DNA of 63,395 nt, the filler included, from an uncultured Myxococcia bacterium (GTDB lineage Bacteria > CAZTWC01): the NCBI GenBank assembly GCA_964617105.1. It is 15 parts of 15 records of this genome, joined end to end, with 100 filler letters (N's around TTAATTAATTAA, not from the genome) between each part and the next. Parts side by side here need not be neighbours in the genome. Positions count along the whole stretch, not along the records: positions 34,209 to 38,320 come from CAZTWC010000323.1; 14 more parts are not named here. One strand, written 5' to 3'. The notes below the pieces were generated by a model. It saw nothing but the letters and a program-made list of their open reading frames with translations, did no database searches and was not told where the DNA came from. Positions 14,743-63,395 of the stretch are shown piece after piece (the stretch's first letter is position 1; every line of letters begins with the position of its first letter). Position numbers and translations under genes: made by a program.

Positions 14743-14964
14743 TCATCCATTGTTTATGTCATCCATTGTCAAATTGAGTTGGCCTAACATAGCCTGCAAT
14801 GTGCCGGTTTTTAACTCATCTTTTGGATTTCTGATAATAGTAAACTTATTGCCATATAACAGAGTTTGGTGACTTCCTTTTCCTCGACGTTTCTCAATTT
14901 GCACATTGATTTTATTTTTATGGCCTATTTTCTTTATTTTTCGGATAAATTCATTACCTTTCAT
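14743..14964 (-). CDS. hicA: HicA-family mRNA interferase toxin (73 aa)
   Basis: RGKGSH catalytic motif and ELKTGTLQAMLGQL; true start at 14964, the longer ORF call to 15264 is spurious. Confidence 0.9.
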   Translation of the reverse strand: MKGNEFIRKIKKIGHKNKINVQIEKRRGKGSHQTLLYGNKFTIIRNPKDELKTGTLQAMLGQLNLTMDDINNG

Positions 14965-14970
14965 ACTTAT

Positions 14971-14999
14971 ATTGTCGGACAACTTTGACCGGATGTCAA
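14971..14999 (-). promoter_or_regulatory. Sigma70 promoter of hicAB with overlapping near-palindrome
   Basis: TTGACA-17 bp-GACAAT, 6 nt before the ATG; TTGTCGGACAA near-palindrome covers the -10. Confidence 0.7.
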
Positions 15000-15051
15000 G
15001 TGGAATCAGGGTATAACTGAAAATCAATCTAAAACTACAGCGTAAAAAACC

Positions 15052-15219
15052 ATGCGGAAGAAAAACATGGAAGTATGCAGGGAAAAACTGAGAATCACTG
15101 AGAGCCATATCAGCGAATTGGAGGACCCACAATTTTGGCAAACTACCAAGTTCCACCGTTACCTCGGGTTTGCCGGTGGGGTATTGGTGAGTGCAGCAAC
15201 AGTCTGGACTTTTAGATAG
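15052..15219 (+). pseudogene. 5'-truncated paralog of the 13853-14242 gene
   Basis: MRKKNMEVCREKLRITESHISELEDPQFWQTTKFHRYLGFAGGVLVSAATVWTFR aligns without gaps to the C-terminal 55 aa of that gene. Confidence 0.85.
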
Positions 15220-15750
15220 TTGCGACAACACCTTAAAATCAGTTTTTCCCCATACTTCATTCAACGGGTATTTAGTTTTGAAAGAACTTTCATCGAAAAT
15301 GATGAATTAAGATTTACAATCCAAAAATAAAAATCAGAACAGTAAATAAAAGAGATGTCAAGTCCCATTAATAGAAAAATCAATAGGTTGAAATCACAAG
15401 CGAAACGAAACGTTTTTTAACGCTACAACCAACTATGCCTGTTCACCGAAAATTTATTTGAATTGCTGGCAAGTGAGATTGAGAGAATATTTCTGACAAA
15501 CCCAAAATTGCACCATAGCATCAAGGCCTGCCATAGCGGGGAGGGTGGCTCCTCTTTGTTTTATGGAAGGGGCAGTGATTATGTTTTGCTATGGTGCAGT
15601 AATCATGGGCCCCTTTTTTATGTTAGGACTTAAGAAAACAGACAAGCCCCTTCCTGCTTTGTTGGTTACCTTCCCATTTTCAAAGAGTCAAGGGTTGTTT
15701 TGGTAAAGTTTCTGGAATTTTCAGGCAGGGATGGGAATCAATGATATCTA

Positions 15751-16843
15751 TAGCAAAACTTAATCATTTTTAGCGATGGTTTCCCTTGTACTTTTTGGTG
15801 AGAAATGGTAAGTATAATTTATGCCTACCTTAAAAAAACCGACTACAAAATGGGGTGACCTGGCAACAGTAACCCGTTGGTATAAGAAAGAGCGTGATGC
15901 TCGGATGAGCCAACGGTTGAATGCCATCAGGTTACTAATGAAGGGAGAGACACAAACTAAGGTTGCTGAACTATTAGATGTTTCTGTTGCCACTATTCGT
16001 AACTGGCGTTCCCGGTGGGACAAGGCTGGAAAGGAGGGACTAATCCCAGAGCATATTGGCTCTAGATCCAAAGTCACCGGGGGTATTCGACTTGAAATTA
16101 AAGAGATCATTGAAATAAAGCAGGAAATAGATGGTCAAACAGTTACGGGTAAATTGATTCATGGCCATATAAAAAAAAATACCTGATAGAAATCAGTTAT
16201 CCTCAAGTTTGTTACATTCTGCGCAGAATGGGTTATAAACGTCTTCGTCCCCGCTCATGGCCTGAAAAACAAGATGAAGAAGTCCGTCAAGAATTTATGG
16301 CCAAATTAGATGCTCTTCGCAACCAACCTCGAATAGAAATTTGGTATCAGGATGAGTGCGGAATCCAGGGCGACAGTAAACCACGACAAATTTGGGCCAA
16401 AAAGGGTTCACGACCCAGACAACCCTATACAGGAGCTCATATTAGGGAAAATGACATTGGCGCAGTAAGTCCATCAGATGGGACCTTTTTCAGTTTGATA
16501 ATGCCTGTGGTGAATAAAGCGACTTTCCAAATTTATCTGGACCATTTGAATGACCACATCGGCAATAAGTGGATAGTGATGGTTATGGACAATGCCAGTT
16601 GGCACAAAGCCGCCGGGCTGAATTGGGGACATATTGTTCCTTTATATTTACCGGCATATTCACCTGACTTTAACCCAATTGAGCGTATATGGTTGAATCT
16701 GAAAGAGTCTTTTTTCTCAAGATTTGTGGCTAAAAACTATAATGAGTTAACAGAGAGATTGTCAGATGCTTTAAGATATTATCACTCTCACCCGGAGGTC
16801 TGTATGTCTATTTGCCATCGTTAAAAATTAGTAATAACTGCTA
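15751..16843 (+). mobile_element. IS630-family insertion sequence, about 1.09 kb
   Basis: Imperfect terminal inverted repeats TAGCAAAACTTAATCATTTTTAGCGATGG / CCATCGTTAAAAATTAGTAATAACTGCTA; TA duplicated at 15749-50 and 16844-45. Confidence 0.93.
15821..16824 (+). CDS. IS630 transposase in two frames (HTH 15821-16186; DDE to 16824)
   Basis: WYQDE, MDNASWH, LPAYSPDFNPIERIW; poly-A run starting at 16171 at the frame junction. Confidence 0.92.
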
Positions 16844-18842: not shown

Positions 18843-20969
18843 TTATTCTCTGGTAAGGGCTTCTTCGATGAGGGCTCCAATGTCGAGCACCAAGATGGTT
18901 TGGTGGTTGCCCAGATCGGTTGCCCCGGCGATTCCTTTAATAGTAGACAGAACCGGACCCAATGGTTTGATAACAATATCCTGTTGATCCAGCAGTTGAT
19001 CCACTATTATTCCCAGGCGGTTTTGGGCCAGACCCACTACAATAACAAAGAGTTTTTCATGGTATTCATTGGGAGAGTCTACATTAAACAGTTTTGATAA
19101 TCTCAAAAGTGGCAGAGTATCGCCTCTAAGTTGAATTACCTCTTTCTTTTCAATGGTTCTGATATCTTGGCTGTTGATAACAATAATTTCCAAAACCGAG
19201 TTCAATGATATGGCATATATATTGTGGCAGATTCTAATAATCAGTGCTTTTATTATAGCCAGGGTAATGGGTAGAGTCATGGTGATCTTGGTGCCTACCC
19301 CTTTATCAGACTGGATGTCGATAATACCGCTGAGATTGGAGATATTGGTTTTTACTACATCCATGCCCACCCCGCGGCCAGAAATTTCACTGATCTCTTG
19401 TTTGGTGGAAAACCCGGGCAGAAAGATGAAGTTGAATATTTCCCGTTTAGATAGTTCGGTTAATTTTTCCGGTTCGATAAGCCCTCGCTCAACTGCGATA
19501 TTACCAATTTTTTCATAATCCAGGCCGCTGCCGTCATCTTCAACTTCCATAATAACATGGTTACCTTTTTGATAGGCTCTGATCCAGACGTTGCCAGCTT
19601 CTTTTTTTTCATTTTCGACCCGTTTGGTAGGAATTTCAATACCGTGGTCAATACAATTGCGGATAATGTGCATCAAAGGATCGCTCAACTCCTCCACGAT
19701 TAATTTGTCTAGTTCAGTATCCGCACCAGTAATGTGGAAATTAATCTCTTTGCCCGCATCGCGGGATATTTTTCTGACCACCCGAGAGAGTTTATCGAAT
19801 ATTTGCCGCAACTGCACCATCCTGACTTCCATCACCCCATCCTGTAGTTCATCCAGTTTTCTGTCGAACTGCCGGCATTCTTTGTACAGATCAACTGCAA
19901 ATCCCTGGAAACCCTGTTCCATTTTCAGCAAATCGGAAATTCGTTACATATTGGTTTTAATCAGCACTAACTCCCCGACAATATTCATTAGATGGTCTAG
20001 TTTTTTTATGTCCACCCGCACGGTTTGGCTGACGCTTTTTAATGAACCATACCCCTCGGTCTTTTTGGCTCCAATGGGAGTAGAGGTTGGTTTGGGTATT
20101 GGTTCTGCCAAGGTGGCGGTTTTTTTCTCCACCGATATTTCGGCTACTGGAGGGCTGACCTCTTTAACTTCTTTAACTTCTTTTACTGGTTCTGGCTCCG
20201 CTTTGGGTTTGGCTTTCGTTTTTTGATTTATCTTGTTGAGCGAAATATGTTTATCGGTTATGGTTGATGAGATGGAGTCGAGTTCCTGTTCGCTTCCGAA
20301 AATGATATCGAATTCGATACCATTAACCTCTTCACTTTCTGAACTTGGTAAAGTGGTGATCACCTCGCCAAAGGGTTTTATTTTTGCGGTCAGATCAGCC
20401 AGGTCCTGGTCGAAACTCATAAGGTCGAAAAGAGTGTGCACCTTGTAGATATAGAGTCCCTGGTTGATATTTTCAATAAGCCGGTATTCTTCGTATTCGG
20501 TGAGAACATCTAAAATACCCTTGTCGATATCAATACTCTTGAGGGGATTATCGTCACTCTCTTGCTCTTTTTGGCTGCTGGCCTCTTCAATTTTAAATAG
20601 AATTTCCTCAATATTGATCCCTGGTCCATCCCCTCTTCTGGAGATATCCTCAATAATGGCGTTGAAGATTTCGATGCACTCAAACATGATATCTAGAATA
20701 TTTGCTTTTAATTTAACCTTGCCCAGCCTGAGGGCGTCCAGCAAATTTTCCATATTATGGCTCAGGGTACTCATCTTGGTGATGCCGAACATCCCTGATA
20801 GACCTTTTAAAGAGTGAGCACCTCGAAAAATATTGTTGAGGATTTCTGGATCAATTTTTCCCGAATTTATGCCGCTGTCCAATTCCAGCAGGTCGCTATT
20901 TAGCGAATCAATTATCTCTTGCGCCTCACCGAGAAATTCGTCTAAGGCTTTTTTCGACATATCGCTCAT
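18843..20969 (-). pseudogene. cheA: CheA kinase interrupted by one in-frame TAA at 19944-19946
   Basis: Hpt FRGAHSLKG; TVRVDIKKLDHLMNIVGELV; reads NM*RISDLLKME in one frame; HIIRNCIDHG, DDGSG, SGRGVGMDVV; C-terminal CheW domain. Confidence 0.88.
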
Positions 20970-31383: not shown

Positions 31384-31633
31384 CTATTTTTCCTCTTTAG
31401 ACCGCTCTCTGAACTCTTTCACAATTGCTGCCACCCTCNNNNNNNNNNATTTGAGCCAGGCTGAGTCCCTGAGAGTCGTGTAAATGACCGATATCATTTA
31501 TTCGCTCCTCCCGTTTTTCAGAAACTCTGGTTGGGACATATATTTGCATCCCCTCCAAGCCCTGGTCCTGTAGTTCTTTAATCTGCTCCGAACTAAGATA
31601 CTTCGATGCCTTGGCAAAAGTAATCCTACTCAT
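31384..31633 (-). CDS. Small Mor/CD3324-like HTH regulator spanning a mis-sized 10-N gap
   Basis: KELQ...IYVP...GLSLAQ; after the gap RVAAIVKEFRER in another frame matches paralog RVAEVLRQYRER. Confidence 0.65.
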
Positions 31634-34108: not shown

Positions 34109-34293
34109 NNNNNNNNNNNNNNNNNNNNNNNNNNNNNNNNNNNNNNNNNNNNTTAATTAATTAANNNNNNNNNNNNNNNNNNNNNNNNNNNNNNNNNNNN
34201 NNNNNNNNTTGTCCTCAGTGCGAAAACACCACTTAATCTTTTCGCCAATCAGGTCTAAGCCTTGATCCTGATGGGTGACCGACCCCAGATTTT

Positions 34294-35037
34294 TCATTGA
34301 TCCTGGCCGTTATGTTCTAATTGCTGTACCCCCCACTTCTTCACAAACTTGTCGGAAGGGGTTATTGCGAGATGAATGTCCTGCGATACATCTTGCGGCA
34401 TGATGGAAATATGGGCTTCAAAATTCTTCGGAGAGGGGAAGTCGGAATATTGATCTTGGTTAACACCTAGAGCAAACTGATCTCCGTATTTCAATATCAA
34501 CCCTTTCAGTCTCGCCCGATTGCTGTGGAAAGCCCTGAAGTAGGTCCTTGAAACCGGATCGTAGTTAAAGACTACGAAATCAAATTCCACTCCGGTATTG
34601 GAAAGTTCCCTATGCAGAAGTAATACTAGAGCATCCTTGTTTACCATTGATACCCTGAACGAAATATTAATAGGCTCCGCGAAACCTCCGCCCCAGTAGA
34701 TATTAACTATGGGCCCTACTACAGTTCTCCTGTCCCCGTTCGGCGTTTCAGGGTTCTTCAGAGAGGTATCCGATCGTATGACATTGCCCCCGATATCAAG
34801 ATAATTTACATGGCCCACCGTCTCCTGTCCGCTTATCTGAAAATTAAATGCCTGGTCCACGCTACAAATATAACTCCCATCAGCGTTGGGCGGCGGGTCC
34901 AAAGAAAGTTCCTCATCCCCGGTTGTGTCGGGTGCCTCATGATAGTGTGTTTGGGTATCTGATCCGCATCCTGTGATGAGGCAAAAGAGAGACATAACAG
35001 AAACCATCCAGATTGCAATGAGAGTCCTGATCGTCAT
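34294..35037 (-). CDS. Lipoprotein with beta-rich domain of unknown function
   Basis: GGAAGGAG RBS; hydrophobic N-terminus ending ITGC lipobox. Confidence 0.75.
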   Translation of the reverse strand: MTIRTLIAIWMVSVMSLFCLITGCGSDTQTHYHEAPDTTGDEELSLDPPPNADGSYICSVDQAFNFQISGQETVGHVNYLDIGGNVIRSDTSLKNPETPNGDRRTVVGPIVNIYWGGGFAEPINISFRVSMVNKDALVLLLHRELSNTGVEFDFVVFNYDPVSRTYFRAFHSNRARLKGLILKYGDQFALGVNQDQYSDFPSPKNFEAHISIMPQDVSQDIHLAITPSDKFVKKWGVQQLEHNGQDQ

Positions 35038-35327
35038 ATTTGGGCTCCTTCCTGAGCTGAATTTATTCCCCTGGATTATTGTGAAAACCCTTAGGCTGGT
35101 CATATCTAGAGAATCGGCATGTTGAGGAATAGGAAATTCAAAGGCTATATTGAAAATATTTTGTCATTATAGCGGATTATTTTCAACCGGAAATTTACCG
35201 TTGTTAGAAGATGAATAACATATAATGGCAGTCTGAGGGAGATTGATAGAAAATATCCAGATTTTAGGCGCAGAATTACGGTCATCCCGTTTAACATGAA
35301 AATTTTTAATGGTGAAGTGACGGGGAG

Positions 35328-36330
35328 TTGATCCTGTTATCCAAAAGGATAAATTGGTGTTTTACCCGGGGCTTCAGTTCCAATTCTCCGGAGTTACTGC
35401 GTCTTTATCGTGAGAATATCGCCCTTAAGGCTCAGGTCCGTGCTCTTGGCCTAGAACTGCAGCCATTTATCGGTAAGAAAGGCAGACTTGCCTTAAAAAC
35501 TAGGGCGGCCCAGGTGTTTGCCTATCTTCTTAATCGAGGGTTCCATGACAGAATATTTGAGAAATATTACCAATCCGCCAGCCGGAAAACAATAAAGCGC
35601 TGGCTGTACCGATTGAAGAAAGGGCCCTGGTATAAGAAGGAGAAGCGGAGAAAAGGAAGGGGAGGACGAAATGCCACTCCCCAGGTGGTGGTGGATCTTG
35701 TAATCAGATTCAAAAAAGAGAATGGGATTTGGGGAGCACCCCGTATACAAGATGAATTGGCAAAGTTAGGTATCAAATTATGCCAGCCGACTATCCAAAA
35801 GATATTGAGAGAACATGGCCTGGACCATCGGCCCAAAAATAACGGTCCCTTTGATTTTGCTAGATATCGTTCGAAGGCCAAAAATATGATGTGGGCGCTG
35901 GACTTCTTTGTGGTGAAAACTTTAAAAGGAATTCAGTTAAATGTGCTTTTGCTGATCGATCTTTACACCAGGGAGTTAATAGGATTGAAGGCCGATGATG
36001 GTATGACAACGGATTCCGGCTGGACTATGAGTATAATGAATTCCTGCATATATAATCTGAAGAGGCAACCTAAAATTGTAATCCACGACTATGGAACTCA
36101 GTTTGAAGGCCAGTTCAAACGTCAGTTGAGAGTGCTTGGTATAGAAAGACGGCGAACGCCGCAGTTGGCTCCCCAAAGGATTTGATTATACATTTGGCCA
36201 GGACCAAAATCCAGTTAAAAGTTTTCCTCTATTTTTCTCTAACGATTATTCAGTTTGCAAAGAACGTTTGGCCGCAAAGACGGTCAGTTTTTCACACTTG
36301 GTGGTGTTTCATTTGCCCTTGGCAAGTACA
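35328..36330. mobile_element. Decayed integrase-core (IS3/IS481-related) element: truncated transposase 35328-36185 (+) and right end
   Basis: ENGIWGAPRIQDELAKLGI, WALDFF, IHDYGTQF; stops before the catalytic Glu; terminus CTTGGCAAGTACA at 36318-36330. Confidence 0.75.
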
Positions 36331-36796
36331 CATCGTTGTAGATACTCCCGGCCAAGTTGAGGAGGGTTGCCCAGGCTTCCTGGGCAGGGCCGGGGATATC
36401 ATTCAGGAAGCGGTCAGCAATCCGGCTACCACAATGCGGCGTTCCAACCGTGGTCAGTGAGTTGACCTTATCTGCGTAACCAAGACCCTTCACTGAGTCC
36501 CTGTCTCCGGTGGTGTTGTTCGATATCAGAAGCCGGCAGTCCAGTCCTCCCATGGAGTGGGCGATCAGGTTGAGTTTGACTGGGTGTCCATGGCTACCTC
36601 TGGTTTTTTTCCGGATAATGTCAACTTGCTTGGCCAACTGGTTTGCCCTGGTCTGCAGATCAGCGTAAGGGGTGGTCTCAACCTCGTAGACTTCGAATCC
36701 ATGATTTTCCAGATACTTTTTGACACCATTAAAATAAAAAGTAGAATAGGTATTAAACCTAAATCTGTTTGTTGGTGACCTCTTTTTTGCCATCAT
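36331..36796 (-). pseudogene. Lipase paralog fragment interrupted by the element end
   Basis: Near-identical to 12955-13848 protein (HGFEVYEVETTPYADLQTRANQLA, AHSMGGLDCRLLISNNTTG); homology ends at GSIYND; no catalytic Asp/His. Confidence 0.85.
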
Positions 36797-36832
36797 TTAC
36801 CTCTTTTCCTAAATAATCCAGCCCTTAGAACA

Positions 36833-36874
36833 AGAGGGTGGCATCGGTCAAATGACCGATTGCCATGAGCCTCT
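36833..36874. other. Intergenic hairpin between divergent genes
   Basis: ATCGGTCA-AA-TGACCGAT core extended by TGGC/GCCA and AGAGG/CCTCT. Confidence 0.5.
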
Positions 36875-36959
36875 ATTTTAGTATACAATTCATTTTAAAT
36901 ATAAACGAAATCAATTAAGGTTTACCTGGTCTATCACAACTACTATTGGAGGTTGATCA

Positions 36960-38174
36960 ATGAAAATTGCCAAAACACTATCTTTACCCATCTTACTCTC
37001 TTTAATCTTTTTTTCCTCAACTGCATTCGCCCTGGAAAGGGTAGAATTAGAAAAGGCTATTGCCCGTAATGCTCAAATAGAAACTATTGACGCCACTGCA
37101 GTTGTGGATGCGATGATCAAATTTACCCAAAAATCCCTGAAAAAGGGCGAACGGGTGCATTTCCCCGGATTTGGAACTTTTAAAGCGGCACAAAGTATTG
37201 AATTTCATCCGGGCAAAGAGTTAACCCAGATTCTTTTTCCAAGACATGCTTTAAATTTTTGGGCTAATGCTATCATTGATGGATGTATTTATGACGTCCC
37301 CGCCACTGGCACCCATGATTTTGCTACTTTAAAATTCTGGATGGGCGAACTGGACCGGATTATCGATCCTAAAGAACAAATGCTCCTTATCTCTGACTAC
37401 CCGAAAGAGCGCAAATCGATGCAGAATTATCTTAGTAAAAGGTTTGAAGAATCTTTTGTTTACCTGGAAAAAGTGGGCCTCGATAAAGAGCAACAAGCCT
37501 TCTGGCGCCCCTATATCAAGGCTTCCCTGGCGGCTGTGGAAATATTTGCCCAAGAACTCCACGGTGAAATTAACCCGGATGGAACTGAGAGGAAAGCACA
37601 ACTCATTGATTCTATTGCCAAAGACGCTAACCTGACCAAAGTTGAAATGAATAAAGCACAACTTATTGATGCCATTGCCAAAGACGCTGACCTGACCAAA
37701 GCACAGGCCAAAAAAGCACTTGATTCTTTCGTGAAAACCACCACTGGCTCCCTGAAAAAAGGCGATAGGGTGCAAATTCCTGGATTTGGAACTTTCTCAC
37801 CAGCCAAAAGAGCTGCGGAGAGAAAAAGGAATCCCCAGACTGGTGAACAGATCAAAATAAAGACCAAAAAAGTTGTTAGGTTTAAAGCAGGTTCCGAACT
37901 TGCTAGCACGATAAAAATGGCCACTGGTGAATTACTTGGTCATGAACTCACTCATGTCTGCCAACAGCGACTAGCAGTTTGCCTCGAACGGACCGGAGCA
38001 GAGGCTTACGCCAGCGGAAATGATGTCGCCTTCAAGAGTAATCCAGATTTGCACACAGTCGCTCATGAAGCTGCTCATGTAGTACAGCAGCGGTCGACCA
38101 CTACTACTGGCCGCAGTAAGGCTAAAAAATGGGGCCGCGGTATGTATAACAAAGCAAAGGGCTATGCAAGGTAG
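36960..38174 (+). CDS. Signal-peptide protein with two HU/IHF domains and DUF4157-like HExxH segments
   Basis: Sec signal ending [29 protein letters not shown]...PGFGTF...[11 protein letters not shown]...[20 protein letters not shown] and [11 protein letters not shown]. Confidence 0.85.
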
Positions 38175-38424
38175 TAGAAATGCTAAAATCGATTTTGATT
38201 TTCTCCTGTTCTCATTTAAAAATTCATTTGGTTATTTTTGATTTAATAGCTTCAAATGCCTTGACCTTTTCGAGTGGTGTCTCGGCTTTATTTAAAGCTG
38301 TGCGGGCATAACGTTCTGCCNNNNNNNNNNNNNNNNNNNNNNNNNNNNNNNNNNNNNNNNNNNNTTAATTAATTAANNNNNNNNNNNNNNNNNNNNNNNN
38401 NNNNNNNNNNNNNNNNNNNNTATG

Positions 38425-49856: not shown

Positions 49857-50255
49857 ATGGCAAATAAAAAATACTCAAATAGTAAGGGCTCTCAGAAGAC
49901 TAAACAGCCAATTTTGTGTGCTATCTATACCCGGAAAAGTACTGATGACAATCTGGACAGTGATTTTAATACGCTGGATGCCCAGCGTGAAGCGGCGGAA
50001 CTGTATATAAAGAGCCAGAAATTTGAAGGCTATGAAGTTCTGCCAAAGCATTACGATGATGGCGGTTTCAGTGGTGCTAACATGGAAAGACCAGCTTTAA
50101 AGCAACTCTGGGCAGATATCGAGACGGGTAAAATTGGTGCTGTAGTAGTGTATAAAATAGACCGAATATCCAGGTCTTTGTTGGATTTTACCAAATTGAT
50201 CGAGTGTTTTGAATCCCACGGGGTAGCCGAAAGTGTCATGGAGTATGTCGGTTAG
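49857..50255 (+). pseudogene. Large serine recombinase truncated after the catalytic domain
   Basis: [33 protein letters not shown]; ends at 132 aa. Confidence 0.85.
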
Positions 50256-52180: not shown

Positions 52181-53872
52181 ATGAGTAAAAATACCATGAA
52201 ACAACTCCCCATTGGCAAATCTGATTTTAAAAAAGTGATTGATGGCAATTATTATTACATTGATAAATCGTTGTTTATCAAAGAGGTAATTGATGCCGAT
52301 GCAGAAATTCTCCTTTTTCCCCGACCACGGCGGTTCGGCAAGACGCTGAATTTGTCGATGCTGCGCTATTTTTTCGATTGCAATGAGAAAGACGGCCATA
52401 AATTCTTTGAAAATCTGGCCATCTGGCAGGTTGGCGAGAAATATAGAGAATGGCAGGGGAAATATCCGGTGGTTTTTTTGACTTTTAAGGATGTAAAAAA
52501 AGGGGATTGGACCCAATGTTATAACAAAATTGTCAATATTATTATTAATGAAATTGAGCACCATAAATATTTACTGAATAGTGACAAGTTATCAGATGTC
52601 GAAAAATCATTTTTAAAGCGCTTATTACATAAAGAAGGGTCATCGGATGATTATGAATTTTCACTATTAAATTTAACCCATTATTTATTCAAGCACTTCA
52701 ATACCAGACCTTTTTTACTGATAGATGAATATGACACCCCAATTCACACCGGTTATTTGGAAGGTCACTACAAAGAGACGATTGGATTTATTGGCAATTT
52801 GCTTTCAGGAGGTTTAAAAGATAATAGTTCCCTGGAAAAAGGGATAGTCACTGGTGCCCTACGGATATCCAAAGAGTCCATTTTTACAGACTTGAATAAT
52901 TTAGATACTCATTCAGTTTTGTCAAATTACTATTCAAACTGGTTTGGTCTGACTGAAGATGAGGTAAATAAAATTCTTGTCGATTTCAACCTGAAAGACC
53001 ATAAGGAAAAAGTCAGCCATTGGTATAACGGCTATCGTTTTGGCCGTGAGGTTATTTATAACCCCTGGTCAATAATCAATTATATCAATAAGCCGGAAAA
53101 TGGTTTTCAAACCTATTGGATCAACACCAGTTCCAATGAACTTGTCAGAGATTTGATTATTGATGGAGGTGCTTATTTGAAAGCAGATATTGGCACCTTG
53201 ATCAACAATGGTACATTGGAAAAATCTATTCGGGAAAATATAGTCTTTGGCACTCTGAGACTTAGCGAAGATATAGTCTGGAGTCTATTGCTTTTTTCTG
53301 GTTATCTCAAAAAGATAGAGACAATTGTCAAAGGACGAACCCGGTTGGTAAAATTAGAGATTCCCAATGAAGAGGTGAGAATTTATTATGAAACAGTAAT
53401 CAGAGACTGGATGACCATGGCGGTTGGCGGTGAAAAGCATCGTGAGTTACTCAACTCCCTGGTCAACGGAAATATCGAAAGATTCGAGGATTTGCTGGAA
53501 GAATTTTTTGCCAGCATACTTTCTTTTCATGATCCAGGCAAAGATGAACCGGAAAGAGTTTATCAGGCTTTTATTCTGGGTATGCTGGTTGGTTTGCAGG
53601 ATGAATATGAGATCAAGTCAAACCGGGAGAGTGGGTATGGCCGTTATGACGTTCTGGTAATCCCGAAAGATACTACCAGACGAGGTATCGTAATTGAACT
53701 GAAAAAACTGAACAAGAGGAGAAATGAAAAGGTTGAGGATGCTCTTGAAAGTGCTCTTAAACAGATAGAGGAAAAAAAGTATTCCCAGGCGTTATTGGAC
53801 CGGGGGATTAAAAATATTTTGAAATTGGGTATAGTTGCCGACGGCAAGAAGGTCTGGGTTAAGGAGGGGTGA
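52181..53872 (+). CDS. AAA-ATPase-like protein with C-terminal PD-(D/E)XK nuclease
   Basis: LPIGKSDF, RPRRFGKTLNLSML, LIDEYD, YNPWS, SNRESGYGRYD, IELK. Confidence 0.93.
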   Translation: MSKNTMKQLPIGKSDFKKVIDGNYYYIDKSLFIKEVIDADAEILLFPRPRRFGKTLNLSMLRYFFDCNEKDGHKFFENLAIWQVGEKYREWQGKYPVVFLTFKDVKKGDWTQCYNKIVNIIINEIEHHKYLLNSDKLSDVEKSFLKRLLHKEGSSDDYEFSLLNLTHYLFKHFNTRPFLLIDEYDTPIHTGYLEGHYKETIGFIGNLLSGGLKDNSSLEKGIVTGALRISKESIFTDLNNLDTHSVLSNYYSNWFGLTEDEVNKILVDFNLKDHKEKVSHWYNGYRFGREVIYNPWSIINYINKPENGFQTYWINTSSNELVRDLIIDGGAYLKADIGTLINNGTLEKSIRENIVFGTLRLSEDIVWSLLLFSGYLKKIETIVKGRTRLVKLEIPNEEVRIYYETVIRDWMTMAVGGEKHRELLNSLVNGNIERFEDLLEEFFASILSFHDPGKDEPERVYQAFILGMLVGLQDEYEIKSNRESGYGRYDVLVIPKDTTRRGIVIELKKLNKRRNEKVEDALESALKQIEEKKYSQALLDRGIKNILKLGIVADGKKVWVKEG

Positions 53873-61070: not shown

Positions 61071-63395
61071 TTAGCGGTTGGTCAATTTCTGGAGACAATT
61101 TTTGTAGGTCTCGGTATCTTGCCAACTGCAACTTCCATTGGTTTCTTTGCATTCCCGGTATTGGTAGCAGTAGTATTCCTTTTTATACATACAAGTGGAC
61201 ATCATCGGTTTATCAGCGCAAAGTTCCTTGGAGCAACCGGTGCGCATACACTTGGGGGGCGCCAGTACACAGACACCTGCTTCGCCCTGGCACTTAGTGC
61301 TGTCACTGCATTTGGGTAATTCGCAGATATAGCCCTGTTTACACTCACTGTCGCTTTTGCAGCCACTATAGTTTTTGCAGGTGCCATAATAGTCTAACTC
61401 AATGCCGGCGTACTTTAGAGAGCAGGGGTTGGGATAGGTTTTACCATCTTTTCCACATACCGGCCTATACTCCCGGGTGCAGTAGCGCACCTGTTTTTCG
61501 CAATTGCCGTTTCGGCAGATATATCCGGTCTGACAATCCTGGTTGGTGTTGCATTTATTCAGATCTGCCCGGCATTTTTTGTAATCCTCGGTATAATCCC
61601 AGGCGCAATAACCCTGTTGGTTGCGCATACAATTGGCCTTGGCATAGCAAGCATATTCTGGCAGGGGTTGGCAGGTTAACTTGATCTCCCGGTCGGAGCA
61701 GATATTGCCGCAGCCGGTAGGTTTACACTCTGGTTTTTGCTTCAGGTCATCCAGGCATTTTTTAAAATCGGGAGTCACGCTCCAACCACACTTACCATCG
61801 GTTTTAACCTGGCATTTACTAAGCCGCAAGCACTTATACTCCGGTAGATACTGGCAGGTAGTCATAATCTTTTTCTCTGAGCAGATTTCGGAGTTACAGC
61901 CACTGACCAGGCATTGGCGCACACATCTACCCGGCACTCCCACGCAGCGGGTATCGGTGCTGGTATTGCTATTATCCGAGTCTGTAGTTGATGAACTTGC
62001 CGAACCACAGCGGGGCATCTCACACCTGAATCCAGTGGGGCAGGGATTATTTTCATGACATATTTGGCCTCCTGCCTCGGAAAAGCACTGATCTTTATAG
62101 CAGGCAAATCCCTTGGGACAGTCTACATTTTGGTAAGTGTCGCACTTGATCTCCTTAGGAAGCAGGCATTTGCCAGCAGTGATACCTGTATTAGTCGGCA
62201 GATTGATGCAGAAGTAGCCGGGCTGGCATTCACTGTTTTGACTACAGCCGGTCTGGTTTGGCCGCTCTACGCACTTACTGTAGCCGGCCGCATCACGGAG
62301 GCAATAGTGGGTAGAGGGGCAGGGTTTATTTTGGTCGCATTCCAGCACTGGTTTTTTAATGCATTTACCAAAACAGTCGCTGCAATTGGCATCGTCATAT
62401 TTACAGGTGTAACCTTCAGGGCATCTTTTGCCAGTTAATCCACCGCACTTGATCTCTTCTGGTTCGCGGCACTTGCAAACGGGGCAATTATTGCTGTCCG
62501 TAACATAGCCATAGCGGCAGTATAGGGTGCAGGCAATCTCCGGGCATTTAGGCTTGGGGTTACACTCACAGATTTCGCATCCGCGGGCATCCTTTTTAAA
62601 ACCGTACTGGCAGTACATCTTACAGGTAATCTCCGGACAATTAGAAGGAGGCTCATTGCACTTGCAGGTTGAACAACCGTCTGCATCCTTAACATATCCG
62701 TGAGGACAGTAGAGATCGCATTGAGGCGGACAGGGTTTTTTGGGGTAGCAAACCCCATCGGGGTCTGGGTAAGAGAAGGGAGAAATACACTCAAAACCCT
62801 CAGGGCATTTTATTTGATTAGCCCCGCCACATTTAATCTCTTTGGCGCATTTGCCTGGGCAGCCAGGGCAGTTGAATGGAGTATGACAAACATAACCTGA
62901 AGCACATTTCTGCCCGGTATTGCCTCCACATTCATCACTTCCTTTGGGTACACAACGACCGCCGGCGTCAGGATGGTTATTGTCCAGCACACACTCCATG
63001 CCGGTAGGACACTGGATGCCGGCAATACCGCCGCAAAAAGCGCCGCCATTGGGGTCTGGGATACATACACCACAGCATTTATCGGGTGGCACCTGGTAAA
63101 GATACCCGGAAGCACATTTTCTCTCCTGGCAATCAACCAAACCACAGTCCATCCGGCAGAGTCCCCAGCCGTTTAGCATGTTAGTTATCTTTTTACAGGT
63201 CATTCCCTTTTCGCATTCTTTGTTGTCAGGCCCGCCGCAGAGTTTTTCTTTGTCCGGTTCGCAGATTGGACAACATTTACCCTGGGGAATTTTCGGAGTA
63301 AATCCTGGTGCACAGGCAACTGATTTACAACGCACTAATTTGCAATCCAAGGGACAGGGACCAGGTTTGAAAATAACTTTGGCACATTTGGCTTC
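61071..63395 (-). CDS. Large cysteine-rich modular protein (VWC-like, antistasin-like, Kazal, Cys-cluster repeats), 5'-partial
   Basis: CPEITCKMYCQYGFKKDARGCEICEC-type x3; CTREYRPVCGKDGKTYPNPC; GCxxxIC..TC...EY.C...C..G.C.W x3; CGG....CP.G..C repeats. Confidence 0.85.
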   Translation of the reverse strand, partial: EAKCAKVIFKPGPCPLDCKLVRCKSVACAPGFTPKIPQGKCCPICEPDKEKLCGGPDNKECEKGMTCKKITNMLNGWGLCRMDCGLVDCQERKCASGYLYQVPPDKCCGVCIPDPNGGAFCGGIAGIQCPTGMECVLDNNHPDAGGRCVPKGSDECGGNTGQKCASGYVCHTPFNCPGCPGKCAKEIKCGGANQIKCPEGFECISPFSYPDPDGVCYPKKPCPPQCDLYCPHGYVKDADGCSTCKCNEPPSNCPEITCKMYCQYGFKKDARGCEICECNPKPKCPEIACTLYCRYGYVTDSNNCPVCKCREPEEIKCGGLTGKRCPEGYTCKYDDANCSDCFGKCIKKPVLECDQNKPCPSTHYCLRDAAGYSKCVERPNQTGCSQNSECQPGYFCINLPTNTGITAGKCLLPKEIKCDTYQNVDCPKGFACYKDQCFSEAGGQICHENNPCPTGFRCEMPRCGSASSSTTDSDNSNTSTDTRCVGVPGRCVRQCLVSGCNSEICSEKKIMTTCQYLPEYKCLRLSKCQVKTDGKCGWSVTPDFKKCLDDLKQKPECKPTGCGNICSDREIKLTCQPLPEYACYAKANCMRNQQGYCAWDYTEDYKKCRADLNKCNTNQDCQTGYICRNGNCEKQVRYCTREYRPVCGKDGKTYPNPCSLKYAGIELDYYGTCKNYSGCKSDSECKQGYICELPKCSDSTKCQGEAGVCVLAPPKCMRTGCSKELCADKPMMSTCMYKKEYYCYQYRECKETNGSCSWQDTETYKNCLQKLTNR

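Follow-up and report, generated by a model that had tools for sequence, protein, structure and literature searches.

Can the HU fold, normally confined to the cytoplasm, be made as a protein for export? This question is raised by one gene in a window of 63,395 nucleotides (the whole stretch of DNA analysed here) from an uncultured Myxococcia bacterium, assembly GCA_964617105.1. Ordinary HU is a cytoplasmic, leaderless protein of about 90 residues, its dimer is a solved textbook pair, and the roles of its dimer body, its arm and its intercalating proline are established. The open reading frame P0001 (36960-38174) encodes 404 residues, in which a Sec-type signal peptide, an HU domain without its arm (HU1), a helical spacer, a complete HU domain (HU2), two pieces of DUF4157 and a basic end follow one another. 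The original prediction, made from the sequence of the window, had described such a chimera and had offered two explanations, namely an exported single-chain HU pseudo-dimer for extracellular DNA or a patchwork decoy built from motifs of conserved proteins. All of the listed elements are present in this reading frame.

Judged by its sequence, the protein is assigned to the HU superfamily as a probably exported two-domain form, and it belongs to an unnamed family of marine and other metagenomes, including a metagenome-assembled genome (MAG) of Halobacteriovorax. Its DUF4157 pieces are a strain-variable 212-nt segment between 8-nt direct repeats. The reading tentatively favoured here, to which we give somewhat less than an even chance, is that of a Sec-exported, one-armed, single-chain two-domain HU that binds DNA outside the cytoplasm and carries an accessory, probably noncatalytic tail.

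Signal Peptide and the Two HU Domains

The leader is recognised by rule, from charge, hydropathy and the residues at -3 and -1, in agreement with the Sec signal peptide proposed earlier. The N-terminus MKIAK contributes two lysines and is followed by a hydrophobic core (Kyte-Doolittle mean over 11 residues reaching 2.5), the only hydrophobic segment of the protein, and then by SSTAFA-LE (the hyphen marks the predicted cleavage), in which alanine at -3 and -1 forms the classical signal-peptidase I pattern in this rule-based call. The ribosome-binding site and the relatives sharing the same layout also back the idea of an exported single-chain HU, and the 404-residue product as a whole is probably exported. 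Translation from the internal Met230 (MNKAQ), which would yield an ordinary HU, is disfavoured, as GGAGG stands before Met1 and Met230, preceded by AAAGTTGAA, has no comparable ribosome-binding site.

The HU family model PF00216 matches the protein in two stretches with 135.7 bits (cut-off 22.4). The better stretch is HU2, where residues 230-318 cover profile positions 1-89 of 90, as expected of the complete HU domain described in the original prediction. HU2 matches the E. coli HU-beta chain at E 5.7e-21, its fold corresponds to that of HU chains with known structure (TMt 0.8-0.9, Z about 10), and its identity to ordinary HUs is 57-59%; the NCBIfam HU equivalog models score below their cut-offs (HU-beta, 109.7 vs 157 bits). 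R290, N291, P292 and G295 are invariant across the 22 sequences of alignment A3. The second PF00216 stretch is HU1, of which residues 30-86 also pass PF18175 (HU-CCDC81_bac_2, a model with a cut arm) with 42.1 bits against a cut-off of 35. When HU1 was aligned to HU2 and three ordinary HUs, a single 21-residue gap fell exactly over the arm (S..RAARTGRNPQTG..I.I), and HU1 keeps the helices and flanking strands without the RNPxTG arm motif, which upholds the armless domain proposed earlier.

An AlphaFold2 model was built from a 22-row alignment. It is poor as a whole (mean predicted local distance difference test, pLDDT, 59.5; predicted template modelling score 0.38), with both HU cores predicted at block means of about 50-82. 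For HU1 the model shows two helices plus three strands, at a block mean pLDDT of 50-80. The spacer of about 120 residues is helical, as had been anticipated, with five helices (86-111, 120-134, 137-144, 148-171 and 176-200) at moderate confidence only (10-residue block mean pLDDT 41-83). It has no Pfam family. A fold search with it reached at best Z of about 6 to helical membrane proteins, which is below the meaningful level for helical bundles, a word-index search with residues 80-228 returned the query itself as the only one of 72 candidates, and a protein atlas search gave no usable match.

The proposed pairing of the two HU bodies was addressed by complex prediction, in which HU1 and HU2 reached an interaction prediction score from aligned errors (ipSAE) of 0.48 against 0.01 for the best control, with contact agreement of at least 93% and partner pLDDT of at least 73 over the runs; the verdict of the tool is weak support. 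Of 80 solved complexes, 58 reach the mark passed by the pair, as do 2 of 110 mismatched pairs. The pseudo-dimer of the original prediction gains weak backing from this score, which may itself reflect likeness to solved HU dimers.

HU2 may also have a history of its own. Its 50-residue body has a mean identity of 63% to 41 ordinary HUs vs 32% to the HU2 bodies of the family, it retains the internal Met-Asn-Lys, and it is preceded by an in-frame 60-nt duplication, a diverged extra copy of its first helix. The ordinary body, the kept Met-Asn-Lys and the duplicated helix together suggest that a whole hup-type module was recombined into the gene.

A Family of Probably Exported Two-HU Proteins

Homologs combining a signal with HU, which the original prediction had proposed to search for, were found as a family with the order leader, HU1, spacer and HU2. 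Comparison by hhalign of the cluster of the window protein (A2) with ten relatives (A5) gave one collinear match, from query residues 13-319 to family positions 11-351 (99.9%, E 1e-33); the alignment stops where the tail starts, and the tail lies outside the family profile. The layout is found in P0004, P0011, P0068, P0075, P0274, P0275, P0276, P0067 and P0310, of which P0274 (MBH46933.1) is from a Halobacteriovorax sp. MAG, and relatives from the first search cover 70-79% of the query. Family members characteristically end a few residues after HU2, a trait shown by the 325-residue natural allele of the window protein (P0121) and not by the 404-residue one. Among the best 120 of 264 proteins at E of at most 0.001 in that first search, no second protein with both HU and PF13699 (DUF4157) was present.

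The family leader ends exactly at the HU start (…A-MNKAE) and is of several types, namely Sec, lipobox (P0011) and twin-arginine (P0002, P0003); P0017 and P0034 have none. By a crude rule, a signal-like N-terminus is present in 24 of the 37 matches whose HU cores lie at least 170 residues apart, and among the other 13 several leaders are cut off or of the twin-arginine type. As a separate observation, twin-arginine-like leaders (SRRTVLRRG…) also open haloarchaeal HU-family proteins about 240 residues long, among them P0036, P0038 and P0041. Halobacterial HUs have been described with N-terminal transmembrane helices (Burroughs et al. 2017, PMC5499826). No description of leader-bearing tandem HU proteins was found in the literature searched, where the architecture list in the supplement of PMC5499826 may bear on this point.

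The spacers of the family, about 150-250 residues long, are related to that of the window protein. A spacer-only hidden Markov model was built from six relatives with the query excluded (for three of the nine listed members the spacer came out empty, the pattern having missed the second HU core); it scores the query spacer at 12.8 bits, and none of 2000 shuffles (1812 scored) reached this value, the best scoring 9.8. The shared pattern is F.P...L..Y..F..NFW, LL.S and Y.NYL.K. Many relatives also have a spacer helix HE(A/L)AHVVQQ, which corresponds to the last 15-22 positions of PF13699 and ranges from sub-threshold to just passing (P0310, 24.8 bits; P0115, 24.1; P0067, 19.3; P0004, 16.2; others, 13-19). 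At this position the query spacer has a decayed LDKEQQ.

Further modules vary among the relatives. P0080, P0092, P0094, P0098, P0106, P0109 and P0316 contain an EF-Tu-domain-2-like barrel (GLLLRGIEKSDIRRGMVIAKPG) between the HU halves, scoring up to 33.6 bits with PF03144, and an EF-Tu equivalog model matches residues 184-218 of P0094 with 27.9 bits; in this set a helix is fused directly before TGRNPQTG and the arm motif is duplicated. P0017 and P0034 contain a tail-tube-like KRPGRVKYSN.TLKRG (weak T4 gp19 match, E 0.026). The Halobacteriovorax-type members P0274, P0275, P0276, P0067 and P0075 have four to six GHVTVLK repeats before HU2, for which a Pfam scan gave no family and, to our knowledge, none is known, and MopE-like Cys motifs occur in other relatives. 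HExxH[VIA].QQ stands at varying positions in 23 of 179 HU-bearing matches, 4 of them in the query's own cluster. This census is biased, in that the word-index search favours proteins sharing exact words with the queries.

Such variation bears on an alternative that we consider unlikely. The HU fold may be an exported scaffold and not a DNA binder, acting, in conflict between bacteria or between predator and prey, as a decoy, a mimic or a binder of some other polyanion or protein and showing conserved patches, namely the HU arm, the EF-Tu-domain-2-like barrel, the DUF4157 HExxH helix and the tail-tube-like motif, with the 212-nt tail as another shuffled patch. The seven barrel-bearing relatives with their helix directly before TGRNPQTG, the tail-tube-like motif of two others, the wandering HExxH helix and the membership of one protein from a predatory genus all speak for it; the bias of the census, the commonness of the EF-Tu domain 2 barrel fold and the strictly kept intercalating proline and arm arginines of HU2, which are most simply accounted for by nucleic-acid binding, speak against it. 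The patchwork of motifs in the original prediction is accordingly echoed in the barrels, HExxHVVQQ helices and tail-tube-like motifs of the relatives but is not shown for this gene. A broader form of the idea appears rather improbable: marine and predatory bacteria would possess Sec-, Tat- or lipoprotein-exported HU scaffolds that swap in cassettes and serve as decoys, mimics or DNA-anchored presenters in interbacterial conflict, the 212-nt segment being one cassette caught as a live polymorphism.

Searches for the family in assembled genomes were less productive. A scan of genome contigs with alignment A1 gave ordinary HU genes of about 90 residues only, mostly from Bacteroidota (best 80 of 591 relatives, 599 stretches). 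In metagenome contigs, P0001 gave 126 pattern matches, none of them confirmed, and P0068 gave ordinary HUs and adjacent HU gene pairs (L081-L083 checked, 3 of 80 loci). No match to A1 (E 1e-35) or P0274 (E 1e-18) was obtained in 401 genomes of the phylum of locus L071, a search without a positive control that does not show absence, and PF13699 had no match in the genome of L071 or in 14 control genomes.

A 212-nt Segment That Differs Between Strains

The tail following HU2 is carried by some alleles and absent from another. At 90% identity, the window protein clusters with three others. P0122 and P0123, from two other assemblies, are also 404 residues long and both carry H67Q, one of them I216L in addition. 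P0121, of 325 residues, diverges beyond residue 320, where GPRYV follows, and stops five residues past HU2; the window itself carries the coding sequence for this KMGPRYV-stop at 38126-38149, in a different frame. When all deletion ends were tried by script, removal of 212 nt gave P0121 exactly, H67Q aside; the deletion has nine equivalent placements because AAAAATGG stands at both ends. For its last 14 residues the long form uses a frame that is not translated in the short allele, and so the basic tail may be partly a by-product. Both the strain-variability of the tail and this frame shift had been missed by the original prediction.

Slippage deletion between microhomologies is the simplest mechanism for the indel. 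Because the family normally ends right after HU2 and the tail has a higher G+C content (0.52 vs 0.40-0.44), the sequence also suggests that the tail was acquired at some stage. Two other mechanisms were considered and rejected. An inversion or shufflon does not fit, since no copy of the end of the short allele was found on the reverse strand and the inverted repeats near the junction are short (11-30 nt, 70-92% complementary). For a repeat or mobile element, blastn and tblastn detected no second copy of the 212 nt in the window, and no terminal inverted repeats were seen by eye.

Four public runs (X1-X4) contain the stretch. Their contigs bridge the other junctions (36599-37116, 36869-37285, 37128-37619, 37434-37769 and 37686-37873), and of the junctions that the original prediction proposed to check by read mapping, signal/HU1, HU1/spacer and spacer/HU2 are spanned by contigs, with HU2/tail unbridged among the contigs listed. 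In X2 and X3 contigs stop at 37927; one X1 contig starts at 37927 and runs past the contig end, and one X4 contig starts exactly at 38125. The public contigs are in this respect consistent with a branch at the HU2/tail junction. Depth over 37935-38072 is 4.3 in X1 and 0 in X2-X4, a zero that is uninformative at 2-5x depth, and no joint matching the short allele was present in the four runs at that depth. Two single-nucleotide polymorphisms in the runs correspond to the cluster variants H67Q and I216L.

The DUF4157 Pieces and the Basic End

PF13699 matches the whole protein in two stretches with 46.5 bits (cut-off 22) and the tail alone with 48.9 bits, which bears out the two partial DUF4157/eCIS-core motifs proposed earlier. 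Each piece has an HExxH motif (HELTH at residues 328-332, HEAAH at 369-373). The tail falls short of a complete 79-position domain: the N-terminal part is missing and at most the last 45 positions are covered. The basic character of the end, likewise noted before, is confirmed by 8 lysines and arginines and no acidic residue over residues 382-404. In the AlphaFold2 model the tail is helical but unreliable (pLDDT 29-45).

An exhaustive search with the 83-residue tail gave 3343 proteins at E of at most 0.001. The top matches are very large proteins in which three to five DUF4157 copies are combined with toxin-type ends (AHH nuclease, zeta toxin, lipase); identity is 78% over 41 residues to a single-domain DUF4157 protein and 69% over 32 residues to the spacer motif of P0004. 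None of the best 150 matches has an HU arm motif, and none has two HExxH within 60 residues. By sequence comparison, the tail is thus classed as part of an ordinary DUF4157 domain, arranged in a way unseen among these 150.

A small DUF4157-type zinc metallopeptidase, with catalytic HExxH elements tethered by the HU domains to DNA or the envelope, is quite doubtful. Two HExxH motifs, a PF13699 score above the cut-off, the recurrence of the HExxHVVQQ helix in the family spacer (best in P0310 and P0115) and the description of DUF4157 as bearing a metalloprotease HExxH motif (PMC8213781) are in its favour. It is opposed by the presence of profile positions 34-78 and about 64-78 of 79 only, by the absence of the segment from the natural allele P0121 and from several family members, by its low pLDDT, by the toxicity of the eCIS (extracellular contractile injection system) cargo Cgo1, which is independent of the DUF4157 metalloprotease motif (PMC8894135), and by the function of DUF4157 being called unknown (PMC11297309, bioRxiv 10.64898/2026.05.27.728243). 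As the tail is partial and naturally dispensable, a small His-rich metal-binding or helical appendage, or a passenger, is more likely than a working peptidase.

Proposed Mechanism and Remaining Alternatives

For the one-armed, exported HU that we favour, the following sequence of events may be envisaged. Cleavage of the signal would release a mature chain of HU1 (dimerisation body and beta-sheet, no arm), the spacer of about 120 residues and HU2 with its arm and intercalating proline. HU1 and HU2 would pair within the chain to form an asymmetric HU-like body with a single arm, and this body would bind and bend nucleic acid beyond the cytoplasm, whether in the periplasm, in a matrix or on prey or incoming DNA. 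The DUF4157 pieces would be accessory, being carried or absent among natural alleles. The step from two HU bodies in a single chain to a one-armed intramolecular pseudo-dimer, the strict conservation of R290, N291, P292 and G295, which suggests that the arm still grips nucleic acid, and the leaders, which would place the binding outside the cytoplasm, are the links from which we infer pairing within the chain and the binding of DNA; the role given to the tail is inferred too.

Several points weigh against this reading. The export call follows from sequence rules only, and all public runs containing the stretch are DNA assemblies. The poor AlphaFold2 model does not fix how HU1 and HU2 are placed relative to each other; in the complex predictions, scores of at most 0.60 came from only 7 of the 80 solved complexes and from both passing mismatches, and since HU dimers are already solved, the pass may reflect likeness. 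The engineered single-chain integration host factor (IHF) aligned to HU2 alone, and Burroughs et al. 2017 (PMC5499826) argue that DNA binding may be absent from those two-HU proteins of bacteria whose arms are cut. HExxH is missing from P0068, P0037, P0020 and P0280, and is therefore not essential to the family. The HU2/tail junction at 37920/37921 is bridged by none of the contigs listed from runs X1-X4, and the three assemblies with the long form may share samples.

In a very improbable alternative, the 404-residue reading is an artefact, whether an assembly chimera at HU2/tail, a decaying gene or an ordinary HU started at the internal MNKAQ. The 4.1-kb contig at about 3-5x depth, the contigs of three runs that end or begin at 37927 by the unbridged junction, the higher G+C content of the tail and the insertion sequence (IS)-type transposase and truncated lipase gene just upstream, with many loose read ends, could all be taken as signs of it. 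They are answered by the three assemblies with the long form and two different substitutions, by the 212-nt deletion between 8-nt repeats, which explains the short form base for base and is not producible by a k-mer assembler, by the frame open across all parts, by a family collinear from signal peptide to HU2, and by the ribosome-binding site at Met1. Finally, a cargo or effector of an eCIS or type VI secretion system marked by DUF4157 is hardly credible, because, for all that DUF4157 marks eCIS-associated toxins (PMC8213781, PMC11297309) and the tail is best matched by giant proteins with multiple DUF4157 copies and ends of toxin type, the domain is here partial, C-terminal and behind a Sec signal (complete, near the N-terminus and followed by a toxin in cargo), a classical Sec signal is weightless in an eCIS classifier (PMC11297309), none of 52 window reading frames matches an eCIS family and no HU arm motif occurs in the best 150 tail matches.

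Genomic Setting and Other Observations

The features of the gene are collected in Table 1.

Table 1. Positions in the window of the features of P0001 and its surroundings
Feature	Position	Strand	Basis or remark
Promoter-like TTGCCA-18-TACAAT	36860..36889	+	70 nt upstream of start; consensus match alone, 10/12 positions
Shine-Dalgarno GGAGG	36948..36952	+	7 nt 5' of ATG
Open reading frame P0001	36960..38174	+	ATG start, 404 aa, stop TAG 38172-38174, frame open throughout
Sec-type signal peptide, aa 1-24 (predicted)	36960..37031	+	predicted cleavage AFA-LE; charge, hydropathy, -3/-1 rule
HU1, HU core without beta-arm, aa 25-92	37032..37235	+	PF18175, second PF00216 stretch, alignment, AlphaFold2
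Helical spacer, aa 93-210	37236..37589	+	homologous to family spacer; without Pfam family
60-nt tandem duplication of HU2 start	37593..37719	+	2.1 copies, 82% matches, in frame
HU2, full HU domain including arm and RNPQTG proline, aa 230-320	37647..37919	+	PF00216, structure matches
Direct repeat AAAAATGG, left copy, 8 nt	37913..37920	+	sequence
212-nt presence/absence segment encoding DUF4157 pieces	37921..38132	+	nine equivalent placements, 37913-38124 to 37921-38132
DUF4157 piece 1, last helix only, aa 325-337	37932..37970	+	second PF13699 stretch, profile ~64-78/79
DUF4157 piece 2, C-terminal half, aa 343-380	37986..38099	+	PF13699 profile 34-78/79
Basic end, aa 382-404	38103..38171	+	8 K/R, no D/E, net +8; last 14 residues beyond indel
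Direct repeat AAAAATGG, right copy, 8 nt	38125..38132	+	sequence
TAA, stop of short (325-aa) allele	38147..38149	+	other frame

The window is made of 16 pieces of about 4.1-4.3 kb each, ordered from longest to shortest and separated by 14 N-flanked TTAATTAATTAA linkers (0.03 expected by chance) and one 10-N gap at 31439-31448. As the pieces are unlinked, genes on different pieces are not neighbours, and the piece with the gene (34209-38320, 4.1 kb) is its sole genuine neighbourhood. This piece also carries a lipoprotein-like reading frame of 269 residues on the minus strand, an IS481/IS3-type transposase frame of 285 residues (35328-36185) and, adjoining it on the minus strand, a 170-residue N-terminal fragment of a lipase-like alpha/beta-hydrolase (36284-36796). 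Loose contig ends occur at 36241 in all four runs and at 36282, 36331/2, 36401 and 36510 in subsets of them, from which the upstream flank appears to differ between strains. The promoter-like site is one of 3 found, against 2.7 expected in shuffles. The runs are marine or seawater metagenomes from two studies.

Zero matches to eCIS families (tube, sheath, baseplate) were found among the 52 window reading frames scanned, on a piece of only 4.1 kb and other, unlinked pieces, and a PADLOC scan gave the HU-type match alone (IHF-VHL_X, 29.5 bits). Elsewhere in the window, CheA is split into two adjacent frames on the minus strand (18846-20969), one with Hpt and the start of the dimerisation domain and the other with HATPase and CheW, followed by two CheW-domain frames. 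An open-ended frame of 774 residues (61074-63395, minus strand) has antistasin-type cysteine-rich repeats (PF02822, 79 bits), which are unusual in bacteria. Additionally, mobile or defence-type genes on other pieces (14746-16821, 49857-50252 and 52181-53869) encode a HicA-like domain, a helix-turn-helix and DDE_3 transposase pair, a resolvase and an AAA-ATPase with a PD-(D/E)XK nuclease domain.

Comparison with Known Systems

Compared with ordinary HU/IHF proteins (DNABII, PF00216), the window protein has in common a complete HU2 with arm and proline and an HU1 that keeps the dimerisation body, and it differs in its 404 residues, its two HU copies, one of them armless, its signal peptide, spacer and tail, and its failure to reach the equivalog cut-offs. 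The HU-CCDC81 two-domain proteins (Burroughs et al. 2017, PMC5499826) come closer, with tandem HU domains, a proposed intramolecular dimer and a cut arm tip, and HU1 passes their model PF18175. In these proteins, cytoplasmic HU domains are followed by a disordered segment, a transmembrane helix and SPOR or LysM (PMC5499826), whereas the window protein has an N-terminal Sec signal and one fully intact arm, and neither SPOR, LysM nor a transmembrane helix beyond the leader was detected in it by Pfam and hydropathy.

The engineered scIHF2 (PDB 2IIE/2IIF), judged from the PDB titles, similarly joins two HU-fold halves into a single chain, about 200 residues long, which acts as a DNA-binding pseudo-dimer. 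This construct is artificial, with two arms and without a spacer, and its alignment with the model covers HU2 alone (98 residues, Z 6.3). If the proposed mechanism holds, the one-armed single chain would be a natural counterpart of engineered single-chain IHF and could reveal the effect of a single arm on DNA.

With the DUF4157/eCIS_core cargo proteins Cgo1 and Cgo2, the tail shares the HExxHVVQQ helix and the preceding strand region. In the cargo, a disordered loading region comes first, DUF4157 follows it close to the N-terminus and the effector stands behind (PMC8213781, bioRxiv 10.64898/2026.05.27.728243), unlike the tail of the window protein, which is partial, repeated as fragments, located at the C-terminus and variable between strains. 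DUF4157 is described as having an unknown function and as dispensable for cargo loading (PMC8213781, PMC11297309, PMC8894135, bioRxiv 10.64898/2026.05.27.728243). What the tail offers is a detailed case of the gain or loss of a domain fragment in a natural population, with a caution against reading function from a chimeric C-terminus.

HU and IHF are found outside cells in the DNA of biofilms without an export signal, and their exit route is a long-standing question. The window protein would resemble these extracellular DNABII proteins as an HU-type protein acting on DNA outside the cytoplasm, but they are leaderless and leave by other routes, and here export appears to be built into the gene. 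If this is true, the leader-bearing family would show that some bacteria make dedicated extracytoplasmic HU-fold proteins, for which the Halobacteriovorax member hints at a role in predation.

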